DNA of 64,000 nucleotides from an uncultured Pseudomonadales bacterium (GTDB lineage: Bacteria > Patescibacteriota > Microgenomatia > UBA1400 > PJMF01): positions 69,249 through 133,248 of the forward strand of contig CAZVBO010000001.1 of assembly GCA_964625685.1 (NCBI GenBank), read 5' to 3'. Below are positions 10,983 to 63,334 of this stretch, in pieces. A program made the position numbers and the translations under genes. Below the pieces are notes generated by a model. The model saw only the letters and a list, made by a program, of their open reading frames with translations, made no database searches and was not told where the DNA came from. Each line of letters starts with the position of its first letter. The first letter of the stretch is position 1.

Positions 10983-11693
10983 ATGTCAGCGACTGCCCAC
11001 AGTGATTTTTGGAAAAAGATGAATGGTGCTTTTTCAGGTTCAGCTGGAACTACATCATCGCCTGTCTCTTCAAAAGTTCTCCTTCAAGTTCAGCCAGCAG
11101 TTGATCCTACAACTCAGGGTCAGGCGCTCGATGTGTTGGATCAAGTATTAACTGAAGTGGAACAACAGCTTCCAGCTTCTACTTCTCAAACAGATGTGGT
11201 TTCTCAAGTTCCTAACCAACCATCTCCAGATCCATTGGCTAGTATGGCTCAGGTGATGCCGCAAACTATCTCTCAAGCTACGGATACACTCAATCCTACC
11301 GCAGCCGCTTTGCCCGCCAAAGAAAAGTTTACTGAAGGGATGTCCGCTAATATTACTACGGAAGTAGCGGGAAATTCTGGTCCTGTAGAAACTGAGCCAC
11401 CTCGGGAAATGGAAATGCCAGTCGAGGTTGAGTCTTATCTCCAAAAAGTGGATAATAATCCAACACAACTTCCTCAAGAAATCGTGGTAGCAGATGATGG
11501 GCAAACAGTTCATACCAAGGCTTTTCCCAAGCAACCCGTAATTGTATTACCGCTGACTGAGGAACAAATTGAACAAGGAAAGAAGAAATCACTTCATTTT
11601 AGTATTCGGTGGCTGGTTGAATGGAGTGAAAAAATTATGAAAATGTTTAGTGGTAAAGTTATTTATCGACAAGCAGAAGAATCCAGTTCGTAA
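10983..11693 (+). CDS. hypothetical acidic, Ser/Thr/Pro/Gln-rich (predicted disordered) protein
   Basis: This 236-aa ORF is low-complexity and its stop lies 1 nt before the ATPase start at 11695 (TAATATG). Antisense ORFs on the minus strand were judged spurious. Confidence 0.4.
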   Translation: MSATAHSDFWKKMNGAFSGSAGTTSSPVSSKVLLQVQPAVDPTTQGQALDVLDQVLTEVEQQLPASTSQTDVVSQVPNQPSPDPLASMAQVMPQTISQATDTLNPTAAALPAKEKFTEGMSANITTEVAGNSGPVETEPPREMEMPVEVESYLQKVDNNPTQLPQEIVVADDGQTVHTKAFPKQPVIVLPLTEEQIEQGKKKSLHFSIRWLVEWSEKIMKMFSGKVIYRQAEESSS

Positions 11694-11694
11694 T

Positions 11695-14034
11695 ATGCAA
11701 ATGGCAAATCCAGATCTTCTTCTAGCAAAATTGGTGACATGGCTGTTTTCAGCGGTAATAGTGTTGGGTCTGCTCTTAATTGTGGCACTCTGTTTTTATT
11801 TACTTTTTCAATGGTTTAAGCATCGCAATCGTGAATCATATGCTCTTGATTTTGTAACTCTGCTTATTCGATTGCCTCGTGATAATGAGATTAAGATTGA
11901 TGCTGCCGAACAAATGTTTTCGGCTCTCTACTCGTTGAAGAAAAAAGGATGGTTTTCGTGGATGAAAGCTGAGGATATGTTTGCTTTTGAGATTGTAGCT
12001 CTTAAGGAAGATATTGCCTTTTATGTGAGTTGCCCTCGGAAATTGCGGGACATGGTGGAAAAGCAGATCAATGGGGCTTATCCAATGGCTGAGATTAAAG
12101 AAGTAGATGAAGTGAATATTTTTTCAGAGAATGGAAAAGTTGAGTTCACTTCTATTAAACTAGACAAAGCTAATTATTTCCCTCTAAAAACATATAAAGA
12201 ATTACCAACTGATGGTTTATCTCTGGTTACTTCGGCTCTGTCGAAATTGAGTGATGGAGAAGGAGCCATGATTCAAGTTTTGATTCAACCTGCTTCAAAG
12301 AAGTGGCAGAAGCAAGGGCGATCCTATGTAGCTAACGAGAAAAAACGAGAAGCTGATCCTGAAAAAGCTACCTATGGTCATGATCCTAAAGAAATGGAAG
12401 CAGTGACGGGCAAGACGGAAAAACCTGGGTTTCAAGTCTCTATCAGAATTGTGGTTTCGTCACCCAATGAGTACTCGGCTCAATCGCACTTAAGTAACAT
12501 TGTAGGTGCTTTTGCTCAATTCGGTTCTGCTTATAACTCTTTCAAGCGCAATAAAGTTATCTTAAAACACTTCTTTATGATTGATTTTATTTATCGGTAT
12601 ATGCCTATGTTTGGACGGGGAACCTCAGTTCTCAGTTCAGAAGAGTTGGCTACTATCTTTCACCTACCCAATAAAACTGTCGAAACTCATCATATCCAGT
12701 GGTTAAATGCCAAAAATGCACCGGCTCCGAATAATATTCCCAACGATGGTCTTTTCTTGGGGACCTCTGTTTACCGAGGGGAAAGACGCAATATTTACAT
12801 TGGAACCAATGACCGGCGTCGTCACATGTATATTGTAGGAAAGACTGGTACGGGTAAATCTGAGTTTCTGAAAGAGATGATTTTACAAGATATTGAAAAG
12901 GGAAATGGAGTCTGCGCGATTGACCCACACGGTGAATTTGTGGAAGATATTTTACAGTTAATGCCACCCGAAAGAGCAGAAGATGTTATTTACTTCAATC
13001 CTTCAGATTTAGATCGACCTATGGGGATGAATATGATGGAAGCAGATACCGAAGAGCAGCAACATTTTGTGGTCAGTTCAGTTATTGGATTGATGTACAA
13101 ATTGTATGATCCTCATCGCACTGGGATTATTGGACCCCGGTTTGAACATGCCATTCGAAATGCTATGTTGACTATTATGTCACGCGAGGGGGGAACCTTT
13201 ATTGAAATGGTTCGGGTGTTAACGGATCAGAAATTTGTGGAAGAATTATTACCCTATGTCAAAGATCCGGTGGTTAAACGCTACTGGACTGATCAAATTG
13301 CTCAAACCTCTGATTTTCATAAATCAGAAGTCTTAGACTATATTGTGTCAAAATTTGGTCGGTTTGTGACCAATAAAACCATGCGTAATATTATTGGTCA
13401 ACAAAAAAGTGCCTTTAATTTCCGCAAAGCGATGGATGAGAAAAAGATTATTTTATGTAACTTATCCAAAGGTATTTTAGGTGAAGAAGATGCTAAATTT
13501 TTAGGATTAATTTTGGTCCCGAAAGTACTAACAGCTGCCATGAGTCGTCAGGATGTGCCAATGGAACAACGGCATGATTTTTATCTCTATGTCGATGAGT
13601 TCCAGAACTATGCAACGGAAGATTTTGCGGTTATTTTGGCTGAGGCTCGTAAGTATCGTCTTAATTTGATTGTAGCTAACCAGTATATTGGTCAAATTGA
13701 TGAGGAAGTTAAAAACGCCGTTTTTGGTAACGTAGGAACGATGGTATCTTTCCGAGTAGGAGTAACTGACGCAAACTTTTTGCAACATGAATTTGCACCC
13801 GTGTTTAATGATCATGATCTAGCAAATGTTGAGAAATATCATGTATATATTAAAACTATTGTCAATAATGAACCAGTCCCAGCCTTTAGTATGTCATTGG
13901 AGAAGGATATGGATATAGTTCAAGCGCGGATGAACCCTAAGTTAGCTGAAATGATCAAACAACTTTCTCGCTTAAAATATGGTCGAGATCGGCAATCAGT
14001 TGAAGAAGAAATGGCGGTGAGAGCAAGATTGTAA
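11695..14034 (+). CDS. VirD4/TraD/TraG-like type IV secretion coupling-protein-family P-loop ATPase with N-terminal TM anchor
   Basis: Walker A GKTGTGKSEF is followed by CAIDPHGEF. A Walker B-like YLYVDEFQNY is followed by EARKYRLNLIVANQYIGQI. The N-terminal TM helix is LVTWLFSAVIVLGLLLIVALCFYLLF. Confidence 0.55.
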   Translation: MQMANPDLLLAKLVTWLFSAVIVLGLLLIVALCFYLLFQWFKHRNRESYALDFVTLLIRLPRDNEIKIDAAEQMFSALYSLKKKGWFSWMKAEDMFAFEIVALKEDIAFYVSCPRKLRDMVEKQINGAYPMAEIKEVDEVNIFSENGKVEFTSIKLDKANYFPLKTYKELPTDGLSLVTSALSKLSDGEGAMIQVLIQPASKKWQKQGRSYVANEKKREADPEKATYGHDPKEMEAVTGKTEKPGFQVSIRIVVSSPNEYSAQSHLSNIVGAFAQFGSAYNSFKRNKVILKHFFMIDFIYRYMPMFGRGTSVLSSEELATIFHLPNKTVETHHIQWLNAKNAPAPNNIPNDGLFLGTSVYRGERRNIYIGTNDRRRHMYIVGKTGTGKSEFLKEMILQDIEKGNGVCAIDPHGEFVEDILQLMPPERAEDVIYFNPSDLDRPMGMNMMEADTEEQQHFVVSSVIGLMYKLYDPHRTGIIGPRFEHAIRNAMLTIMSREGGTFIEMVRVLTDQKFVEELLPYVKDPVVKRYWTDQIAQTSDFHKSEVLDYIVSKFGRFVTNKTMRNIIGQQKSAFNFRKAMDEKKIILCNLSKGILGEEDAKFLGLILVPKVLTAAMSRQDVPMEQRHDFYLYVDEFQNYATEDFAVILAEARKYRLNLIVANQYIGQIDEEVKNAVFGNVGTMVSFRVGVTDANFLQHEFAPVFNDHDLANVEKYHVYIKTIVNNEPVPAFSMSLEKDMDIVQARMNPKLAEMIKQLSRLKYGRDRQSVEEEMAVRARL

Positions 14035-19335: not shown

Positions 19336-19413
19336 ACCAAATTTTTTCCCCTGGTAAAATCCAGAGTTTGTCTGGAGATGAAACCGATACTTACTGTTAT
19401 AATAAGTACGCTT

Positions 19414-19487
19414 GCGCGCATAGCTCAATTGGTTAGAGCACAAAGCTTATACCTTTGCGGTTCTAGGTTCGAGTCCTAGTGCGCGCA
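19414..19487 (+). tRNA. tRNA-Ile, anticodon UAU (DNA TAT)
   Basis: The 74-nt sequence folds as a cloverleaf. The acceptor stem is GCGCGCA/TGCGCGC. The D-arm is GCTC-AATTGGTTA-GAGC. The anticodon arm is CAAAG-CTTATAC-CTTTG with U33 and A37. The T-arm is CTAGG-TTCGAGT-CCTAG. No CCA is encoded. Confidence 0.75.
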
Positions 19488-19556
19488 CTTTCTTACTTAG
19501 TTGTGACTTTATTCCGTATCCTTTTAAGTCTTCATTTGATCCAATGAGGTTTGATC

Positions 19557-50667: not shown

Positions 50668-51786
50668 CTAAAGTCTCTTCCTCGGCTCACGATCAAGCTG
50701 GTTCACGTCTATCACAAACTCTTTTTTCAGATATTGGTAGTAACCGGCAAGGCCAATCATGGCGGCATTGTCACCACAGAGTCGTTTGGTGTAAGGGACT
50801 TTGAGTGTAAGTTGAGGCTGAGCAGAATTTCGTAATGTGTGACGGATCATGGCCCGAAGAGTCACATTCCCAGCAACACCACCACCCAACCAAACTTGAC
50901 CCGAAATAGGGGCAGTTTCTAATATTTTACTCAATTTATGAAGTAAATGCCTAAAGACCGCATATTGAAAGCTTGCACATAAATCATATATTTCTTGTTT
51001 TGTCAGTGGGTGATCCGCTTCTTCAGTTTCGATTAAGTTTCGGGCGTAAGTTTTGAGTCCCGAAAAACTCAGATTGTAATCATCAGAAGTAGTCATAGGT
51101 AGTGGAAAAGGATATTTCTGAGAGTTCCCTAATTTTGCAAACTCTTCCATCACCGGCCCAGCCGGATATCCTAAATCCAACATGCGACCAATTTTATCTA
51201 AGGCCTCTCCTGCCGCATCATCAATGGTGGTGCCCAGAATTTCGTAGCTCCCAATGTCCTTCACCAAAACAAACTCAGTGTGTTTTCCCGACACGACAAT
51301 ACTTAAAATGGGAAATAACGTATCGTCATCCTGATCCCGTTCTACAACGGGACAGGCTTGTTTCAGGATCTTCTGAGTTACAGAGTGTTTTTTTTCTTTC
51401 CTTTTTGCCAAAACTGATAAGATATGTCCTTCAACATGGTTAACCGCGATCAGAGGTTTGTCAGTTTTGATAGCTAAGTCTTGAGCGGCTTGAATTCCCA
51501 CCTCCAAAGCCGGTGCCAATCCCGGACCTTGGGTGACGGCAATAGCATCAATTTTAGCTAATTCTACTCGAGCTCTTTTGAGTGCCATTTGAATAGTTGG
51601 TTGGATATTTTCTTTATGGGCTTGTTTGGCCACGGTGGGGAAAACCCCTCCAAAAGGTTTGTGCAATTCAGTTTGAGAAGCGACGATGTTACTTAAAACA
51701 GTAACTCCTTGGGTGACAGCGGCAGAAGTATCATCACAAGAAGTATCAATACTGAGGAGGAGCGGTTCATTTGACATGTGATTCAC
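50668..51786 (-). CDS. tsaD: tRNA N6-adenosine threonylcarbamoyltransferase TsaD
   Basis: The segments LLLSIDTSCDDTSAAV and VAVNHVEGHIL are present, with the Kae1/TsaD fold motifs. Confidence 0.9.
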   Translation of the reverse strand: MNHMSNEPLLLSIDTSCDDTSAAVTQGVTVLSNIVASQTELHKPFGGVFPTVAKQAHKENIQPTIQMALKRARVELAKIDAIAVTQGPGLAPALEVGIQAAQDLAIKTDKPLIAVNHVEGHILSVLAKRKEKKHSVTQKILKQACPVVERDQDDDTLFPILSIVVSGKHTEFVLVKDIGSYEILGTTIDDAAGEALDKIGRMLDLGYPAGPVMEEFAKLGNSQKYPFPLPMTTSDDYNLSFSGLKTYARNLIETEEADHPLTKQEIYDLCASFQYAVFRHLLHKLSKILETAPISGQVWLGGGVAGNVTLRAMIRHTLRNSAQPQLTLKVPYTKRLCGDNAAMIGLAGYYQYLKKEFVIDVNQLDREPRKRL

Positions 51787-52927
51787 TCTCCTCGTGAATT
51801 GCTAACAGACGATCTTGTCCAGTTTCAGAAAAATCAATAATCAGTTGAGGCTGAATTTGAGGTAAAGCAAACTCAGCAATTTGATTCCACCATTCTATAA
51901 GCAGAATATTGTGGGGTTGAATTAACGGTGGGATTTCTAAACGGTCGAAGGTAGTTTGATCATCCACTTTCCACAAATCCAAGTGATAAAATTTGCCAGA
52001 CGTTTGATGACGAGTGTAATCGTATTCTTCAATGTAAGAGTAGGTGGGAGACTTAATTATATACTCAATTTTTAAAAATTTAGCGGATCCTTTAGCAAAA
52101 ATTGTCTTACCTATTCCTAGTGGTCCGTTGAGTCCAATCACCAATCCAGTCTCTTGAATTTGATTCCAATTTTTCAATAATAACCGTCCAGCAATATCTT
52201 CGGTTTCACTTGGACTGTGACTGGTGAGAGTAAAGGTAGGTTGATTATGGAGTTCGGCATCAGTGGTTTGCCGATCGCGCATGACGACCGGAGTTGAGAG
52301 GGTGGTATCAATGACCGTAGAAGGCGGATTGTGAGGTAGTTCGCCCGCATCTAAAACAAGATCAATGAGGTTTTGTTGCTTTTGGGAAAGACGATCGAAA
52401 ATATCTTGAACGGTGTAAGGCCTTTTTTCACCAGAAGCATTGGCCGAAGTTGCTGTGATGGGTTTGCCATAGGCTTCGACAATATCCAAGATGAGTTGAT
52501 AATCAGGAATTCGAATGCCTAACGTTCCAAACTCTGAGGCAACTCCAGTGGCAACTTTGTTTTTTGATTGGCAAACCACTGTGACTGGACCAGGCAGAAA
52601 CCGATCAAACAGTTTTTGAGCAGAAGGATTGACTTCAACATATTTGGCTGCCTCGGCTTGATTGGGGACAGCAATGGACATCGGTTTACCTTCTCGGCGA
52701 GATTTATAGGAGAGGAGTCTATCAACCGCCTGTTGATTAGTCGCATCTACTCCGGCCCCATAGGTAGTTTCAGTGGGGAAAATGACAATTCCCCCTGCTT
52801 GTAAAACTTCAACAGTTCGGGCAATGATTTTATCGGGTGAAGTTGAGTTGATGTCAATAATTTTCACTTGAGTATTATACAACGATGGGGTAGACCTGCC
52901 TGCTATAATAAATTCATGCATATACAT
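51767..52927 (-). CDS. fusion protein: threonylcarbamoyl-AMP synthase (TsaC/Sua5/YrdC domain) + TsaE P-loop domain
   Basis: The N-terminal YrdC-like region is IVIFPTETTYGAGVDATNQQAVDRLLSYKSR. The C-terminal TsaE-like region is LVIGLNGPLGIGKTIFAKG...YHLDLWKV. The ORF overlaps the tsaD start. Confidence 0.7.
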   Translation of the reverse strand: MYMHEFIIAGRSTPSLYNTQVKIIDINSTSPDKIIARTVEVLQAGGIVIFPTETTYGAGVDATNQQAVDRLLSYKSRREGKPMSIAVPNQAEAAKYVEVNPSAQKLFDRFLPGPVTVVCQSKNKVATGVASEFGTLGIRIPDYQLILDIVEAYGKPITATSANASGEKRPYTVQDIFDRLSQKQQNLIDLVLDAGELPHNPPSTVIDTTLSTPVVMRDRQTTDAELHNQPTFTLTSHSPSETEDIAGRLLLKNWNQIQETGLVIGLNGPLGIGKTIFAKGSAKFLKIEYIIKSPTYSYIEEYDYTRHQTSGKFYHLDLWKVDDQTTFDRLEIPPLIQPHNILLIEWWNQIAEFALPQIQPQLIIDFSETGQDRLLAIHEESESHVK

Positions 52928-57624: not shown

Positions 57625-57680
57625 AGGCTGATCCCGCTTTGCGGGAAACCCCTACCTGTCTGTAGCAGCTTAATAATTTG

Positions 57681-57754
57681 TACCAGGGGAGAGATTCGAA
57701 CTCTCGACCTTTGGTTTATGAATCCAATGCTCTAACCAGCTGAGCTACCCTGGC
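57681..57754 (-). tRNA. tRNA-Met (anticodon CAU), probably elongator
   Basis: The reverse complement folds as a cloverleaf. The acceptor stem is GCCAGGG/CCCTGGT with a G1-U72 pair. The D-arm is GCTC-AGCTGGTTA-GAGC. The anticodon loop is TTCATAA. The T-arm is GAGAG-TTCGAAT-CTCTC. No CCA is encoded. Confidence 0.75.
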
Positions 57755-57981: not shown

Positions 57982-58050
57982 CGCGGGATAGTGTAGGGTG
58001 CACGTGAGGCTCATAATCTCACAGGCTAGGTTCGACTCCTAGTCCCGCAA
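57982..58050 (+). tRNA. compact tRNA with CAU anticodon, initiator-like (tRNA-fMet candidate)
   Basis: The acceptor stem CGCGGGA/TCCCGCA has a C1xA72 mismatch, which is the bacterial initiator hallmark. The anticodon loop is CTCATAA. The T-arm is CTAGG-TTCGACT-CCTAG. The D-arm is short (3-4 bp stem) and the variable loop is 4 nt, giving about 69 nt. The exact ends are uncertain. Confidence 0.6.
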
Positions 58051-58102
58051 CAATGTAAAAGGATCCCGTTTATCGGGGTCTTTTTTATTTTTAGAAAGAG
58101 AT

Positions 58103-58541: not shown

Positions 58542-58787
58542 ATGTGGTTTGTTTATGTTTTACTGTGCCAAGATGGAAGTTTGTATACGGGCATTTCACC
58601 TGATCCTGAAAAAAGATTTGAGCAGCATCTTTCAGGGAAAGGAGCCAAGTATACCCGATCTCATAAGCCAGTTAAAATTGTTTACCAAGAAAAATTTAAA
58701 TCTCGCTCAGAAGCGTTGAAAAGAGAAGCGGAGATTAAGGGATGGAGACGAGAAAGGAAAATTAGGGAATTAAAATTTCTAAAATGA
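58542..58787 (+). CDS. small GIY-YIG nuclease family protein (YhbQ/UPF0213-like)
   Basis: The N-terminus WFVYVLLCQDGSLYTGISPDPEKRFEQH matches the GIY-YIG core (GIY here as FVY ... YTG). Conserved R and E residues follow in a protein of about 81 aa from ATG 58542. Confidence 0.65.
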   Translation: MWFVYVLLCQDGSLYTGISPDPEKRFEQHLSGKGAKYTRSHKPVKIVYQEKFKSRSEALKREAEIKGWRRERKIRELKFLK

Positions 58788-60213: not shown

Positions 60214-61080
60214 ATGCAACCTGTACTAACTGAACTTCACCAACAGTTTACCCAGAGTTTAATTGATGCTGGTAAAGCCAATGCCACGGTTATTGCGTAT
60301 AGCAAAGACATTGAGCAGTTAATTGAGTATGTGGCCAAAAAAGGAAAAACTCAACCCCAAGAAGTTACTTCTGAGGACATTGATGAGTTTAAAGATTTAC
60401 TTAAAAAACAACGTTATACCAGTAAATCAATTTCGCGAAAAATTAACTCTATTAAGTCCTTTTTCCGTTATTTGATTCAGCAAAATGTGTTAGAGACCAA
60501 TCCGGCGGAAGTTATTATCCATCCCAAATTGGAACAATTACCTCCTCGGATTTTATCAAAAATGGAATACCGCGCCTTGCGTGATGCCTGTCGTGGTGAC
60601 TCCCGAATGCGAGCCATTGTAGAAGTTTTACTCCAAACCGGAATGCGGATTAGTGAACTTTCTTCTCTACAACTGACAGATATTGATTTTGATCATAATG
60701 TGATTCATATTGGTGCTCAAAATTCTCGTGAAGCCAGAAAAGTGCCGATGAACCAGGCAGCTAAAACAGCTCTGCAAGATTATCTTTCAGTTCGTCCTCG
60801 TGCTCGAGAAAAAACAGTGTTTTTAACCAAAACCTGTCGACCATTTTTAGTCAGAAATATTCGCACAGCTATTGATCGCTATTTTCGTTTGGCAGGAATT
60901 AAAGATGCTAAAGTCAATGATTTACGCCATACATTTATCGTCGAACAGCTCAAAGCTGGTACTCCTTTAGTCTATATTTCTCAATTGGTGGGTCATAAAC
61001 GTATTACCACTACTGAAAAATATCTGAAATTGATTGACGCTCCTGATATGAACCCGAGTGTTCAGATTGAAGAGCTGTAA
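60214..61080 (+). CDS. tyrosine site-specific recombinase (XerC/XerD-like)
   Basis: The C-terminal catalytic signature is present: ...LRHTFIVEQL...LVGHKRITTTEKYLKL (R...H-x-x-R...Y). The N-terminus is a SAM-like core-binding domain. Confidence 0.8.
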   Translation: MQPVLTELHQQFTQSLIDAGKANATVIAYSKDIEQLIEYVAKKGKTQPQEVTSEDIDEFKDLLKKQRYTSKSISRKINSIKSFFRYLIQQNVLETNPAEVIIHPKLEQLPPRILSKMEYRALRDACRGDSRMRAIVEVLLQTGMRISELSSLQLTDIDFDHNVIHIGAQNSREARKVPMNQAAKTALQDYLSVRPRAREKTVFLTKTCRPFLVRNIRTAIDRYFRLAGIKDAKVNDLRHTFIVEQLKAGTPLVYISQLVGHKRITTTEKYLKLIDAPDMNPSVQIEEL

Positions 61081-61994: not shown

Positions 61995-62993
61995 ATGAAA
62001 AAAAGAATAGTATCAGGCATTACGCCCAGTGGTAACTCACTCCATATTGGAAATTATTTCGGAGCGATCAAACCACAAATTGAATTACAAAATAATGATA
62101 CCTATGAAACGTATTATTTCGTAGCCGATTTACATGCTTTAACCACGATTAAAGATCAAGCCCAACTTCAAAAAAATGTAGAGGGAGTAGTGTTAGATTA
62201 TTTATCGCTGGGCCTTGATCCAGAGAAATGTATTTTCTTTCGTCAGTCAGAAGTGCCAGGCCATTCTCAGTTAGCGGTTGTCTTAGCCAATTACATTTCA
62301 TACGGCCAGATGAAACGGATGCATGCCTTTAAAGACAAACTTGAAAAAGGAACGAGCGTAGAGTCAATCAATATGGGTTTGTTTAACTATCCCATTTTGA
62401 TGGCAGCAGATATTTTACTGTATCGAGCAGTGGGTGTGCCGGTAGGAGAAGATCAACGCCAACATGTAGAACTCACCCGAGATATTGCTGAGAGTTTTAA
62501 TGGAGCTTATCATCAGGATTTCTTTCCTTTACCCAAACCGATGATCAACAAAACTACGGCTAAAGTAGTCGGAACTGATGGTAGTCGTAAGATGAGTAAG
62601 TCATTAGGCAATATTATTGGGATTTTTGATAACGAGGAAGTGATCAAACAACAAATTATGAAATCTTTTACTGATCCCAATCGGAAAAAAGCAACTGATC
62701 CGGGCACAGTCGAGGGTAATCCAGTTTTTATGTATCATGACTTGTTAAATCAAAACGAAGCAGAAGTCGCTGAATTAAAAGAACGTTATCGCCAGGGGAA
62801 AGTAGGTGACGTGGAAGTGAAACAAAAATTGTTTGAAGCTCACCAAACTTACTTTGCTGAGGCTATTGAACGTCGCCGTGAATTAGCCACTAATCAGCAA
62901 CTTCTCAGGGAAATTTTAGAAAATGGAGCGGAAAGAGCCAATCAAGTGGCTCAACAAACTTTAGCAGAAGCGTATGAATTGATTGGAGAGTGA
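61995..62993 (+). CDS. trpS: tryptophan--tRNA ligase
   Basis: The class I motifs are present: the HIGN variant SGITPSGNSLHIGNYFG and KMSKS. The protein is about 332 aa. Confidence 0.9.
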   Translation: MKKRIVSGITPSGNSLHIGNYFGAIKPQIELQNNDTYETYYFVADLHALTTIKDQAQLQKNVEGVVLDYLSLGLDPEKCIFFRQSEVPGHSQLAVVLANYISYGQMKRMHAFKDKLEKGTSVESINMGLFNYPILMAADILLYRAVGVPVGEDQRQHVELTRDIAESFNGAYHQDFFPLPKPMINKTTAKVVGTDGSRKMSKSLGNIIGIFDNEEVIKQQIMKSFTDPNRKKATDPGTVEGNPVFMYHDLLNQNEAEVAELKERYRQGKVGDVEVKQKLFEAHQTYFAEAIERRRELATNQQLLREILENGAERANQVAQQTLAEAYELIGE

Positions 62994-63334
62994 CAATTAT
63001 GAAACCGACCATCGAGTACTCAGATTTTGAAAAACTAGAATTAAGAGTGGGCAAAATTACTGAAGCGAGCGCCCCAGAATGGAGCAATAAGTTACTCCAG
63101 TTTACTGTTGATTTTGGAGGTGAGATAGGAACTAAAACTATTTTATCTGGGGTAAAGCAATGGTATTCACCAGAAGCATTTTTAGGAAAAAACTTTCCTT
63201 TTGTGATTAATTTAGCCGAACGTAAAATGGGTGAAGGAGTCAGTCAAGGAATGATGATTATGGCAGATACTAAAGATCAGCCAACCCTCTTCCCGCTAGC
63301 TCTAGAGATTGCACCTGGTACAATTATTCGCTAG
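62990..63334 (+). CDS. csaA: tRNA-binding protein (CsaA/Trbp111-like, EMAP/Myf domain)
   Basis: The segment FEKLELRVGKITEA...GEGVSQGMMI is the OB-fold tRNA-binding domain found at the MetRS C-terminus or in CsaA. The ORF overlaps the trpS stop by 4 nt. Confidence 0.75.
   Translation: MTIMKPTIEYSDFEKLELRVGKITEASAPEWSNKLLQFTVDFGGEIGTKTILSGVKQWYSPEAFLGKNFPFVINLAERKMGEGVSQGMMIMADTKDQPTLFPLALEIAPGTIIR

Follow-up and report, generated by a model that had tools for sequence, protein, structure and literature searches.

An isoleucine tRNA gene with a DNA-encoded UAU anticodon, of a kind common among CPR bacteria, as a candidate for AUA decoding without lysidine

The window, the whole stretch of 64,000 nucleotides that was analyzed, has a GC content of about 39%, and ARAGORN found three tRNA genes in it, one of which was called as tRNA-Ile(tat) at positions 19414-19488 (+). 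Rfam RF00005 gave a full-length match at 19414-19487 (+) with 72.3 bits (E=7e-14), the gathering score of this model being 29. Read directly from the sequence, the tRNA is 74 nt long and has an acceptor stem of 7 bp (GCGCGCA/TGCGCGC), a D arm GCTC/GAGC, an anticodon stem CAAAG/CTTTG, an anticodon loop C-T-T-A-T-A-C with U33 and A37, a T arm CTAGG-TTCGAGT-CCTAG and the discriminator A73, while CCA is absent from the gene. The anticodon T34 A35 T36 is located at 19447-19449. The clean cloverleaf described in the original prediction was recovered with the same stems and loops, in agreement with both programs, and ARAGORN assigned the same TAT anticodon to the window sequence. The same 75 bases were present in three independent Logan assemblies from different sequencing runs (L001-L003), so that T34 is no assembly or sequencing error. 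The exact 74-nt tRNA had no match in the GTDB species-representative genomes, to which the source genome does not belong. As judged from its sequence, the gene is a real isoleucine tRNA that looks functional. The features of the window that are relevant here are compiled in Table 1.

Table 1. Position, strand and basis of assignment of features in the window
Feature	Position	Strand	Basis or remark
DUF87/TrwB-type ATPase	11650-14034		
MacA-like periplasmic adaptor, 346 aa in L001	18283-19323	-	NCBIfam, Pfam
Extended -10-like box TGTTATAAT	19395-19403	+	10 nt upstream of tRNA 5' end
tRNA-Ile with gene-encoded UAU anticodon	19414-19487	+	ARAGORN, Rfam, sequence, identity in L001-L003, family covariation
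Protein without family match, 363 aa	19551-20642	+	Just downstream of tRNA
TsaD	50668-51786	-	Pfam PF00814
TsaC(Sua5/YrdC)-TsaE fusion	51767-52927	-	Pfam PF01300 and PF02367
Elongator tRNA-Met(CAU)	57680-57754	-	ARAGORN/Rfam; G1.U72, C3:G70, A4:U69, A73
Initiator-like tRNA(CAU), C1xA72 mismatch	57982-58051	+	ARAGORN; Rfam 48.7 bits
Small GIY-YIG ORF	58542-58787		Called in L216
Tyrosine recombinase (phage-integrase family)	60214-61080	+	
TrpRS	61995-62993	+	Pfam
tRNA-binding-domain protein	62990-63334	+	Pfam
ftsH, start	from about 63380, off the window end (64000)	+	

The divergent neighbor of the tRNA is the MacA-like gene, which heads a macA-ABC ATPase-macB operon extending to 16354. In locus L101 the orthologous tRNA is preceded, at a similarly short distance, by a box like that of the window, GTTATAAT. 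A scan with consensus promoters, which required a -35 box, called no promoter on the + strand at the tRNA; it missed TGTTATAAT because there is no -35 box at this site. The box is probably the tRNA's own promoter, of the TGnTATAAT type. For the 363-aa protein encoded on the other side of the tRNA, a set of 5.8 billion clustered proteins contained only three homologues, the protein itself and two that are 44% identical to it, and the close complete genome contained none; the protein is therefore useless as a synteny anchor.

The chromosome represented by the window carries a sparse, CPR-like gene set, and many of the proteins had no family match. It encodes an ATP-dependent DNA ligase, Pth, Lgt, MurJ, two class-A PBPs, PilN/PilO, LepA, SmpB, Cmk, NrdR together with a class II ribonucleotide reductase, TsaD, a TsaC-TsaE fusion, GroES/GroEL and TrpRS. 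The LepA protein was 100% identical to one encoded on a 234-kb contig in NCBI and Logan, and 80% identical to that of GCA_015657875.1, a single contig of 1.08 Mb in which the gene order matches that of the window, and the named LepA homologues were all from 'Patescibacteria group bacterium'. The organism is an uncultured member of the Patescibacteria (CPR), probably on the Microgenomates side. TsaC and TsaE are joined in one ORF of 386 aa, which shares some 20 nt with the beginning of TsaD and forms a compact t6A operon with it; TsaB was not seen near these genes.

According to Silva et al. (PMC1635315), C3:G70 is typical of tRNA-Met and tRNA-fMet, while G3, A3, C70 or T70 point to tRNA-Ile(CAT), in which C4:G69 is also frequent. 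The body of the tRNA-Ile(UAU) is Ile2-like, with G3:C70, C4:G69, U12:A23, C32, A37 and A73. Among these and neighboring positions, the features of isoleucine identity are A73, A37 following U36 (the t6A site), acceptor and D stems of the Ile type, and a 3:70 pair that is directed against Met. The assignment to isoleucine made in the original prediction agrees with the published discriminators in G3:C70, C4:G69, U12:A23, A37 and A73 (PMC1635315). Judged by these positions, the tRNA body looks like that of a tRNA-Ile2 whose C34 became U.

The other two tRNA genes of the window both have a CAU anticodon and were detected by ARAGORN and Rfam, as had been expected. The combination of G1.U72, C3:G70 and A4:U69 seen in one of them also occurs in the elongator tRNA-Met located beside tilS in ordinary bacteria and in the elongator tRNA-Met of other CPR loci. 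A C1xA72 mismatch as in the second gene is a feature of bacterial initiator tRNAs. These marks support the earlier reading of the pair as one Met and one fMet tRNA. The Ile2 marks G3/A3:C70/T70 were present in none of 13 CAU tRNAs of CPR-type loci, and neither CAU tRNA of the window fits Ile2 by the published discriminators (PMC1635315). The 31:39 pair of the elongator tRNA-Met is not of the Watson-Crick type, being A.A in the window and in L087:3603-3678 and A.C in L018:330-404, and the loop U32-U33-C-A-U-A-A is found in the elongator of all three. Three consecutive G:C pairs in the anticodon stem are considered a hallmark of initiator tRNAs. The initiator-like tRNA of the window has A29:U41, G30:C40 and G31.U39 instead of three G:C pairs, and a D loop of 5 nt. 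Three other CPR-type loci (L018:98-168, L042:1153-1223 and L124:729-802) share these anticodon-stem pairs and also have a shortened D loop, the initiator arm sequence being identical between L018 and L042.

Codon usage was determined for the 41 long ORFs of the window. These contained 100 ATA codons versus 851 ATT and 238 ATC, which corresponds to 5.8 ATA per 1000 codons and to 8% of the isoleucine codons; the codon is rare, and the supposition of many ATA codons did not hold. To assess the meaning of ATA, codon alignments were made between genes of the window and the orthologous genes of L013, an 80%-related genome. The ATA codons of the window (n=29) faced Ile 13 times, Val and Leu 6 times each and Met once, and in the reverse direction the ATA codons of L013 (n=62) faced Ile 30 times, Val 13 times, Leu 9 times and Met once. 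In both directions together, ATA stood opposite Ile in 43 of 91 cases and opposite Met in 2 of 91. As ATA faces Ile, Val or Leu and seldom Met, AUA is, though rare, a genuine codon for isoleucine, which supports the reading assumed for it. The lone ATA of LepA falls in a column with Met (69) or Ile (42) in the homologues and is uninformative, because this column is Met/Ile-variable.

The surroundings of the tRNA are conserved in related genomes. In L101 and L065 it lies beside the same macA-ABC ATPase-macB operon, the proteins having 52-68% amino-acid identity, and in L106, L067, L105, L124 and L042 it is within a few kb of the DUF87/TrwB-type ATPase that the window also encodes, with 68-83% amino-acid identity. 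Since relatives share the synteny of the window, the tRNA gene is old and vertically inherited. A location in a mobile element was not found, the neighborhood being kept in all of these loci, and the 59-nt tRNA core had no exact match in IMG/VR. Judged from these comparisons, the tRNA-Ile(UAU) gene is chromosomal, vertically inherited and typical of the phylum, and is not peculiar to the genome of the window. The orientation at the site differs: in the window, and likewise in the Logan contigs that belong to its species, macA and the tRNA with its TATAAT box point away from each other, and the tRNA is co-directional with macA and upstream of it in L101 (L101:4050-4300) and L065. From this arrangement it is evident that a small cassette inversion has occurred at the conserved tRNA-macA site.

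To cover the wider distribution, the degenerate pattern AGAGC-N6-YTTATA-N14-GGTTCNANTCC was searched in the GTDB species genomes, which gave at least 120 matches. ARAGORN called tRNA-Ile(tat) in 120 of the 120 matches listed. At least 71 of the matches listed were CPR-named according to their record titles, namely 29 'Saccharibacteria' and 42 others, among them Woese-, Davies-, Levyi-, Dojka-, Kaiser-, Nomura-, Taylor-, Uhr-, Falkow-, Kuenen-, Niyogi-, Morani- and Peri-bacteria, Parcubacteria and Paceibacterota. Several more of the matches listed, with the name 'bacterium' or with doubtful names, had CPR-type sequences and synteny. The others listed were Planctomycete tRNA arrays, Chloroflexota, Ignavibacteria, Dormibacterota, two cultured bacteria and a few archaea, including L024, L077 and L109. 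Among the 71 CPR-named genes of the matches listed, the acceptor stem was fully paired in 68, R3:Y70 was present in 69 and A73 in 70, and C32 and A37 occurred in every one. From an alignment of 40 sequences (the window gene and 39 CPR-named genes), RNAalifold recovered the cloverleaf; at 15 of the 21 stem pairs both bases had changed in a compensatory manner, and the D stem was invariant. The covarying stems and the conserved features indicate a conserved and selected tRNA-Ile(UAU) family.

The closest relatives of the window tRNA among the matches listed were CPR chromosomal genes, which agreed at 66-68 of 74 positions, and the closest tRNA relatives and syntenic loci among these matches were labelled Woesebacteria, Levyibacteria, Daviesbacteria and Paceibacterota. 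With at least 71 CPR-named species among the 120 GTDB matches listed, the gene can no longer be regarded as the oddity that it had been taken for; by the sequence comparisons, tRNA-Ile(UAU) is common in the CPR phylum and normal for this lineage.

In many CPR loci (L030, L075, L129, L100, L080, L086, L127 and others) the tRNA-Ile(UAU) forms a pair with tRNA-Val(GAC), which lies beside ValRS in those checked (L030, L075, L129 and L100). A recurrent CPR tRNA block following the Ile(UAU)/Val pair has the order Val(GAC)-Leu(GAG)-Val(UAC)-Phe-Gly. The class-I synthetases encoded beside CPR tRNA-Ile(tat) genes were ValRS and not IleRS, and no IleRS was found in the window or in the fetched CPR loci. 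The Planctomycete matches (L044, L054, L055, L058 and L111) are arrays in which 8-35 tRNA genes stand close together; they hold tRNA-Ile(tat), odd short tRNAs and calls with four-base anticodons and look mobile or accessory.

The search for tilS in the source genome covered the window and 5.4 kb past its right end, about 69 kb of a genome of about 1 Mb. No PP-loop motif and no match to the TilS family was found in any ORF of the window. An HMM built from 80 metagenomic TilS gave no match (E<=10) in the window, in the 5.4 kb beyond its right end, in the Logan contigs, in L013 or in the DNA flanking the tRNA at the 71 CPR-named loci, and the CPR flanks that were searched without finding tilS amounted to about 0.6 Mb. 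A tblastn search with TilS of E. coli, Geobacillus and Aquifex over about 1.0 Mb of DNA was also negative, which is weak evidence because 1.0 Mb is about one genome-equivalent. The 80 metagenomic TilS loci were of the ordinary, Firmicutes-like tilS-hpt-ftsH type, with no CPR TilS among them. As a control, FtsH was encoded within 3 kb downstream in 33 of 45 TilS loci with enough flank.

Upstream of ftsH the window encodes a methyltransferase, TrpRS and the tRNA-binding-domain protein, and neither tilS nor hpt was found at this place. Logan contigs L216-L218 reach past the window end; FtsH is full-length in them, and the genes after it encode Ion_trans, a 5'-3' exonuclease, GT4 and GH39. No TilS was encoded upstream of ftsH in about 18 CPR loci with that region sequenced; Pfam analysis of 10 ORFs upstream of CPR ftsH gave patatin, S1, EF-P, radical-SAM, pilin-like proteins or unknowns, and no TilS. 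That tilS and ftsH are not linked in CPR is no proof that tilS itself is missing. Among the matches listed, 34 of the 71 CPR-named loci had an FtsH gene within a stretch of 8 kb, and in 25 of these 34 the tRNA-Ile(UAU) followed ftsH directly, in the same orientation and at a distance of less than 800 nt and often of 5-40 nt. Examples are L128:1744-3710, L080:3153-5131, L108:1-2065, L132:3775-5824, L039, L072 and L041. This adjacency could be a coincidence or the trace of a replacement.

Taken as a whole, it appears probable that the gene is a functional minor tRNA-Ile with a UAU anticodon written in the DNA, vertically inherited and likely the sole decoder of AUA. That the UAU tRNA is the only AUA decoder, tilS and tRNA-Ile2(CAU) being absent from this small genome, we would put at somewhat better than an even chance. 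The gene would be transcribed from its own TGnTATAAT-type promoter, the transcript would be trimmed, and CCA would be added post-transcriptionally, because none is encoded in the gene. The TsaC, TsaD and TsaE proteins encoded in the window may install t6A37. IleRS would then charge the UAU tRNA, and the rare AUA codons would be read as isoleucine by U34-A pairing without lysidine. Since position 34 is T in the DNA, a conversion of C to lysidine is neither possible nor needed. Misreading of AUG may be limited by an adaptation of IleRS or the ribosome together with competition by tRNA-Met. An IleRS adapted to U34 would have Arg or Lys at the position of E. coli Trp905 or would be a type-2 IleRS.

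Textbooks describe tRNA-Ile(UAU) as rare in bacteria. Mycoplasma mobile has a tRNA-Ile(UAU) with unmodified U34 and no tilS (Taniguchi et al. 2013, PMC3575796), and its tRNA carries t6A37, which was needed in isoleucylation assays (PMC3575796). Since U34 is unmodified in that organism, the U34 modification that had been postulated for the window tRNA is not a necessary prediction. AUA decoding of the M. mobile type appears to be the best-supported mechanism for the window tRNA: both organisms have a gene-encoded UAU on an Ile tRNA with A37, a small reduced genome, AUA as an isoleucine codon and no need for lysidine. In M. mobile, however, the loss of tilS and tRNA-Ile(CAT), the unmodified U34, Arg865 of IleRS and the discrimination against AUG by the ribosome were demonstrated experimentally. 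The M. mobile case is also recent and isolated in the Tenericutes, whereas the tRNA described here is common to the whole phylum. Further tRNA-Ile(UAU) were described without tilS in Mycoplasma, Bifidobacterium and Neorickettsia, and together with tilS in Lactobacillus, Cyanothece and Ferrimonas (PMC3575796). The latter bacteria (Lactobacillus casei/plantarum, Cyanothece PCC 7424 and Ferrimonas balearica; PMC3575796) differ in that tilS is demonstrably kept there.

With the system of tRNA-Ile2(CAU) and TilS, the window tRNA has in common that it is a minor reader of AUA with G3:C70, C4:G69, A37 and A73 in its body. It differs in that the C34 which TilS requires is replaced by T34 in all three assemblies, and in that there is no tilS at its usual place upstream of ftsH. 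In archaea, tRNA-Ile(UAU) occurs in lineages without TiaS, the enzyme for agmatidine, for example in Nanoarchaeota/DPANN. These resemble the present case in having an ultra-small genome of the episymbiont type and in using a UAU tRNA instead of one with a modified C. In two archaeal MAGs (L077:1427-3860 and L109:7045-7978) the tRNA-Ile(UAU) adjoins the IleRS gene (NCBIfam ileS, 757 bits in L077), whereas in the window it does not.

The main competing explanation is that tilS and tRNA-Ile2(CAU) are located elsewhere in the genome, and that the UAU tRNA is a second and possibly minor reader of AUA. The coexistence of both systems is documented in Lactobacillus casei/plantarum, Cyanothece and Ferrimonas (PMC3575796), tilS is reported for some 98% of the bacterial genomes that are annotated (PMC12514573), and more than 90% of the genome lies beyond the roughly 69 kb searched. 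On the other hand, CPR genomes are small with a pared-down gene set, none of the 13 CAU tRNAs of CPR-type loci had Ile2 marks, and the searches of the window, of its extension, of the ftsH locus and of the flanks of 71 CPR-named loci gave no TilS. On balance we regard such a redundant decoder as rather unlikely, and the UAU tRNA as sole AUA reader as the preferred interpretation.

Much less can be said for the other explanations. Were the gene a tRNA-Ile2(CAU) or tRNA-Met in which C34 had turned into T by error or mutation, it would be functionless or decaying, and TAT and CAT are indeed only one base apart; the gene is nevertheless identical in three independent assemblies and its cloverleaf is perfect, while the TAT anticodon recurs in at least 120 genomes with compensatory stem changes, which makes an artefact hardly credible. 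A recent acquisition from a phage or island, outside the core translation set, is almost as improbable. Although phages often carry tRNA-Ile(TAT), the Planctomycete matches are large tRNA arrays of mobile look and a tyrosine-recombinase gene is present, this only integrase of the window is 40 kb away from the tRNA. The tRNA itself is flanked by chromosomal genes in a neighborhood conserved in related genomes, its closest relatives among the matches listed are the CPR chromosomal genes mentioned above, the GC content is unremarkable and its 59-nt core was not found in IMG/VR. Equally remote is a recoding of AUA, by which the UAU tRNA would be charged with an amino acid other than Ile, such as Met as in some mitochondria. 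The only ATA of LepA, at its Met/Ile-variable column, would be compatible with this, but the orthologue pairs with ATA opposite Ile in 43 and Met in just 2 of 91 cases and the anti-Met G3:C70 pair in the acceptor stem speak against it. Artefact, mobile tRNA and AUA-to-Met recoding were rejected on the basis of assembly identity, conserved synteny and the alignment of ATA with Ile, respectively.

Bacterial tRNA-Ile(UAU) have been reported since 2006-2013; the lists comprise nine tilS-less species in three clades, 19 species in tRNADB-CE and 371 metagenomic sequences. Papers up to 2026 still refer to 'rare cases' of the tRNA in bacteria and to tilS in about 98% of genomes (98%: PMC12514573), and a search of open-access full text found no paper linking CPR with tilS, lysidine, AUA decoding or tRNA-Ile. 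The window gene alone changes little, since such an AUA-reading tRNA is what one expects in a CPR bacterium. What is under-reported is the phylum-wide spread of tRNA-Ile(UAU), not this single gene. In many CPR classes the tRNA lies directly behind ftsH, which travels with tilS in other bacteria. Somewhat short of an even chance, we tentatively propose that the CPR phylum replaced tilS and tRNA-Ile2(CAU) by a gene-encoded tRNA-Ile(UAU). If this is true, no other bacterial lineage that decodes AUA without lysidine would come near the CPR in size, which would contradict both the 'rare cases' and the view of tilS as near-universal and essential. If the CPR are generally without tilS, TilS would not be a universal bacterial target, the IleRS and ribosome of a huge uncultured radiation would have solved the discrimination of AUA and AUG differently, and the cultivable Saccharibacteria would offer a direct experimental system.

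Two minor observations concern the records and the surroundings of the genes. The tyrosine recombinase and the GIY-YIG ORF are located within about 2 kb of both CAU tRNA genes, and this region may be an integration hotspot. Several MAGs labelled Pseudomonadales, Gammaproteobacteria or archaeon had CPR-type features (L065, L042, L017, L040, L082, L104, L116 and L100): L065 shares the macAB synteny, L042 has the CPR-type initiator and a DUF87 ATPase of 69% identity, and in L100 ValRS occurs together with the Val/Leu/Val block. These records were probably deposited under a wrong taxonomy.
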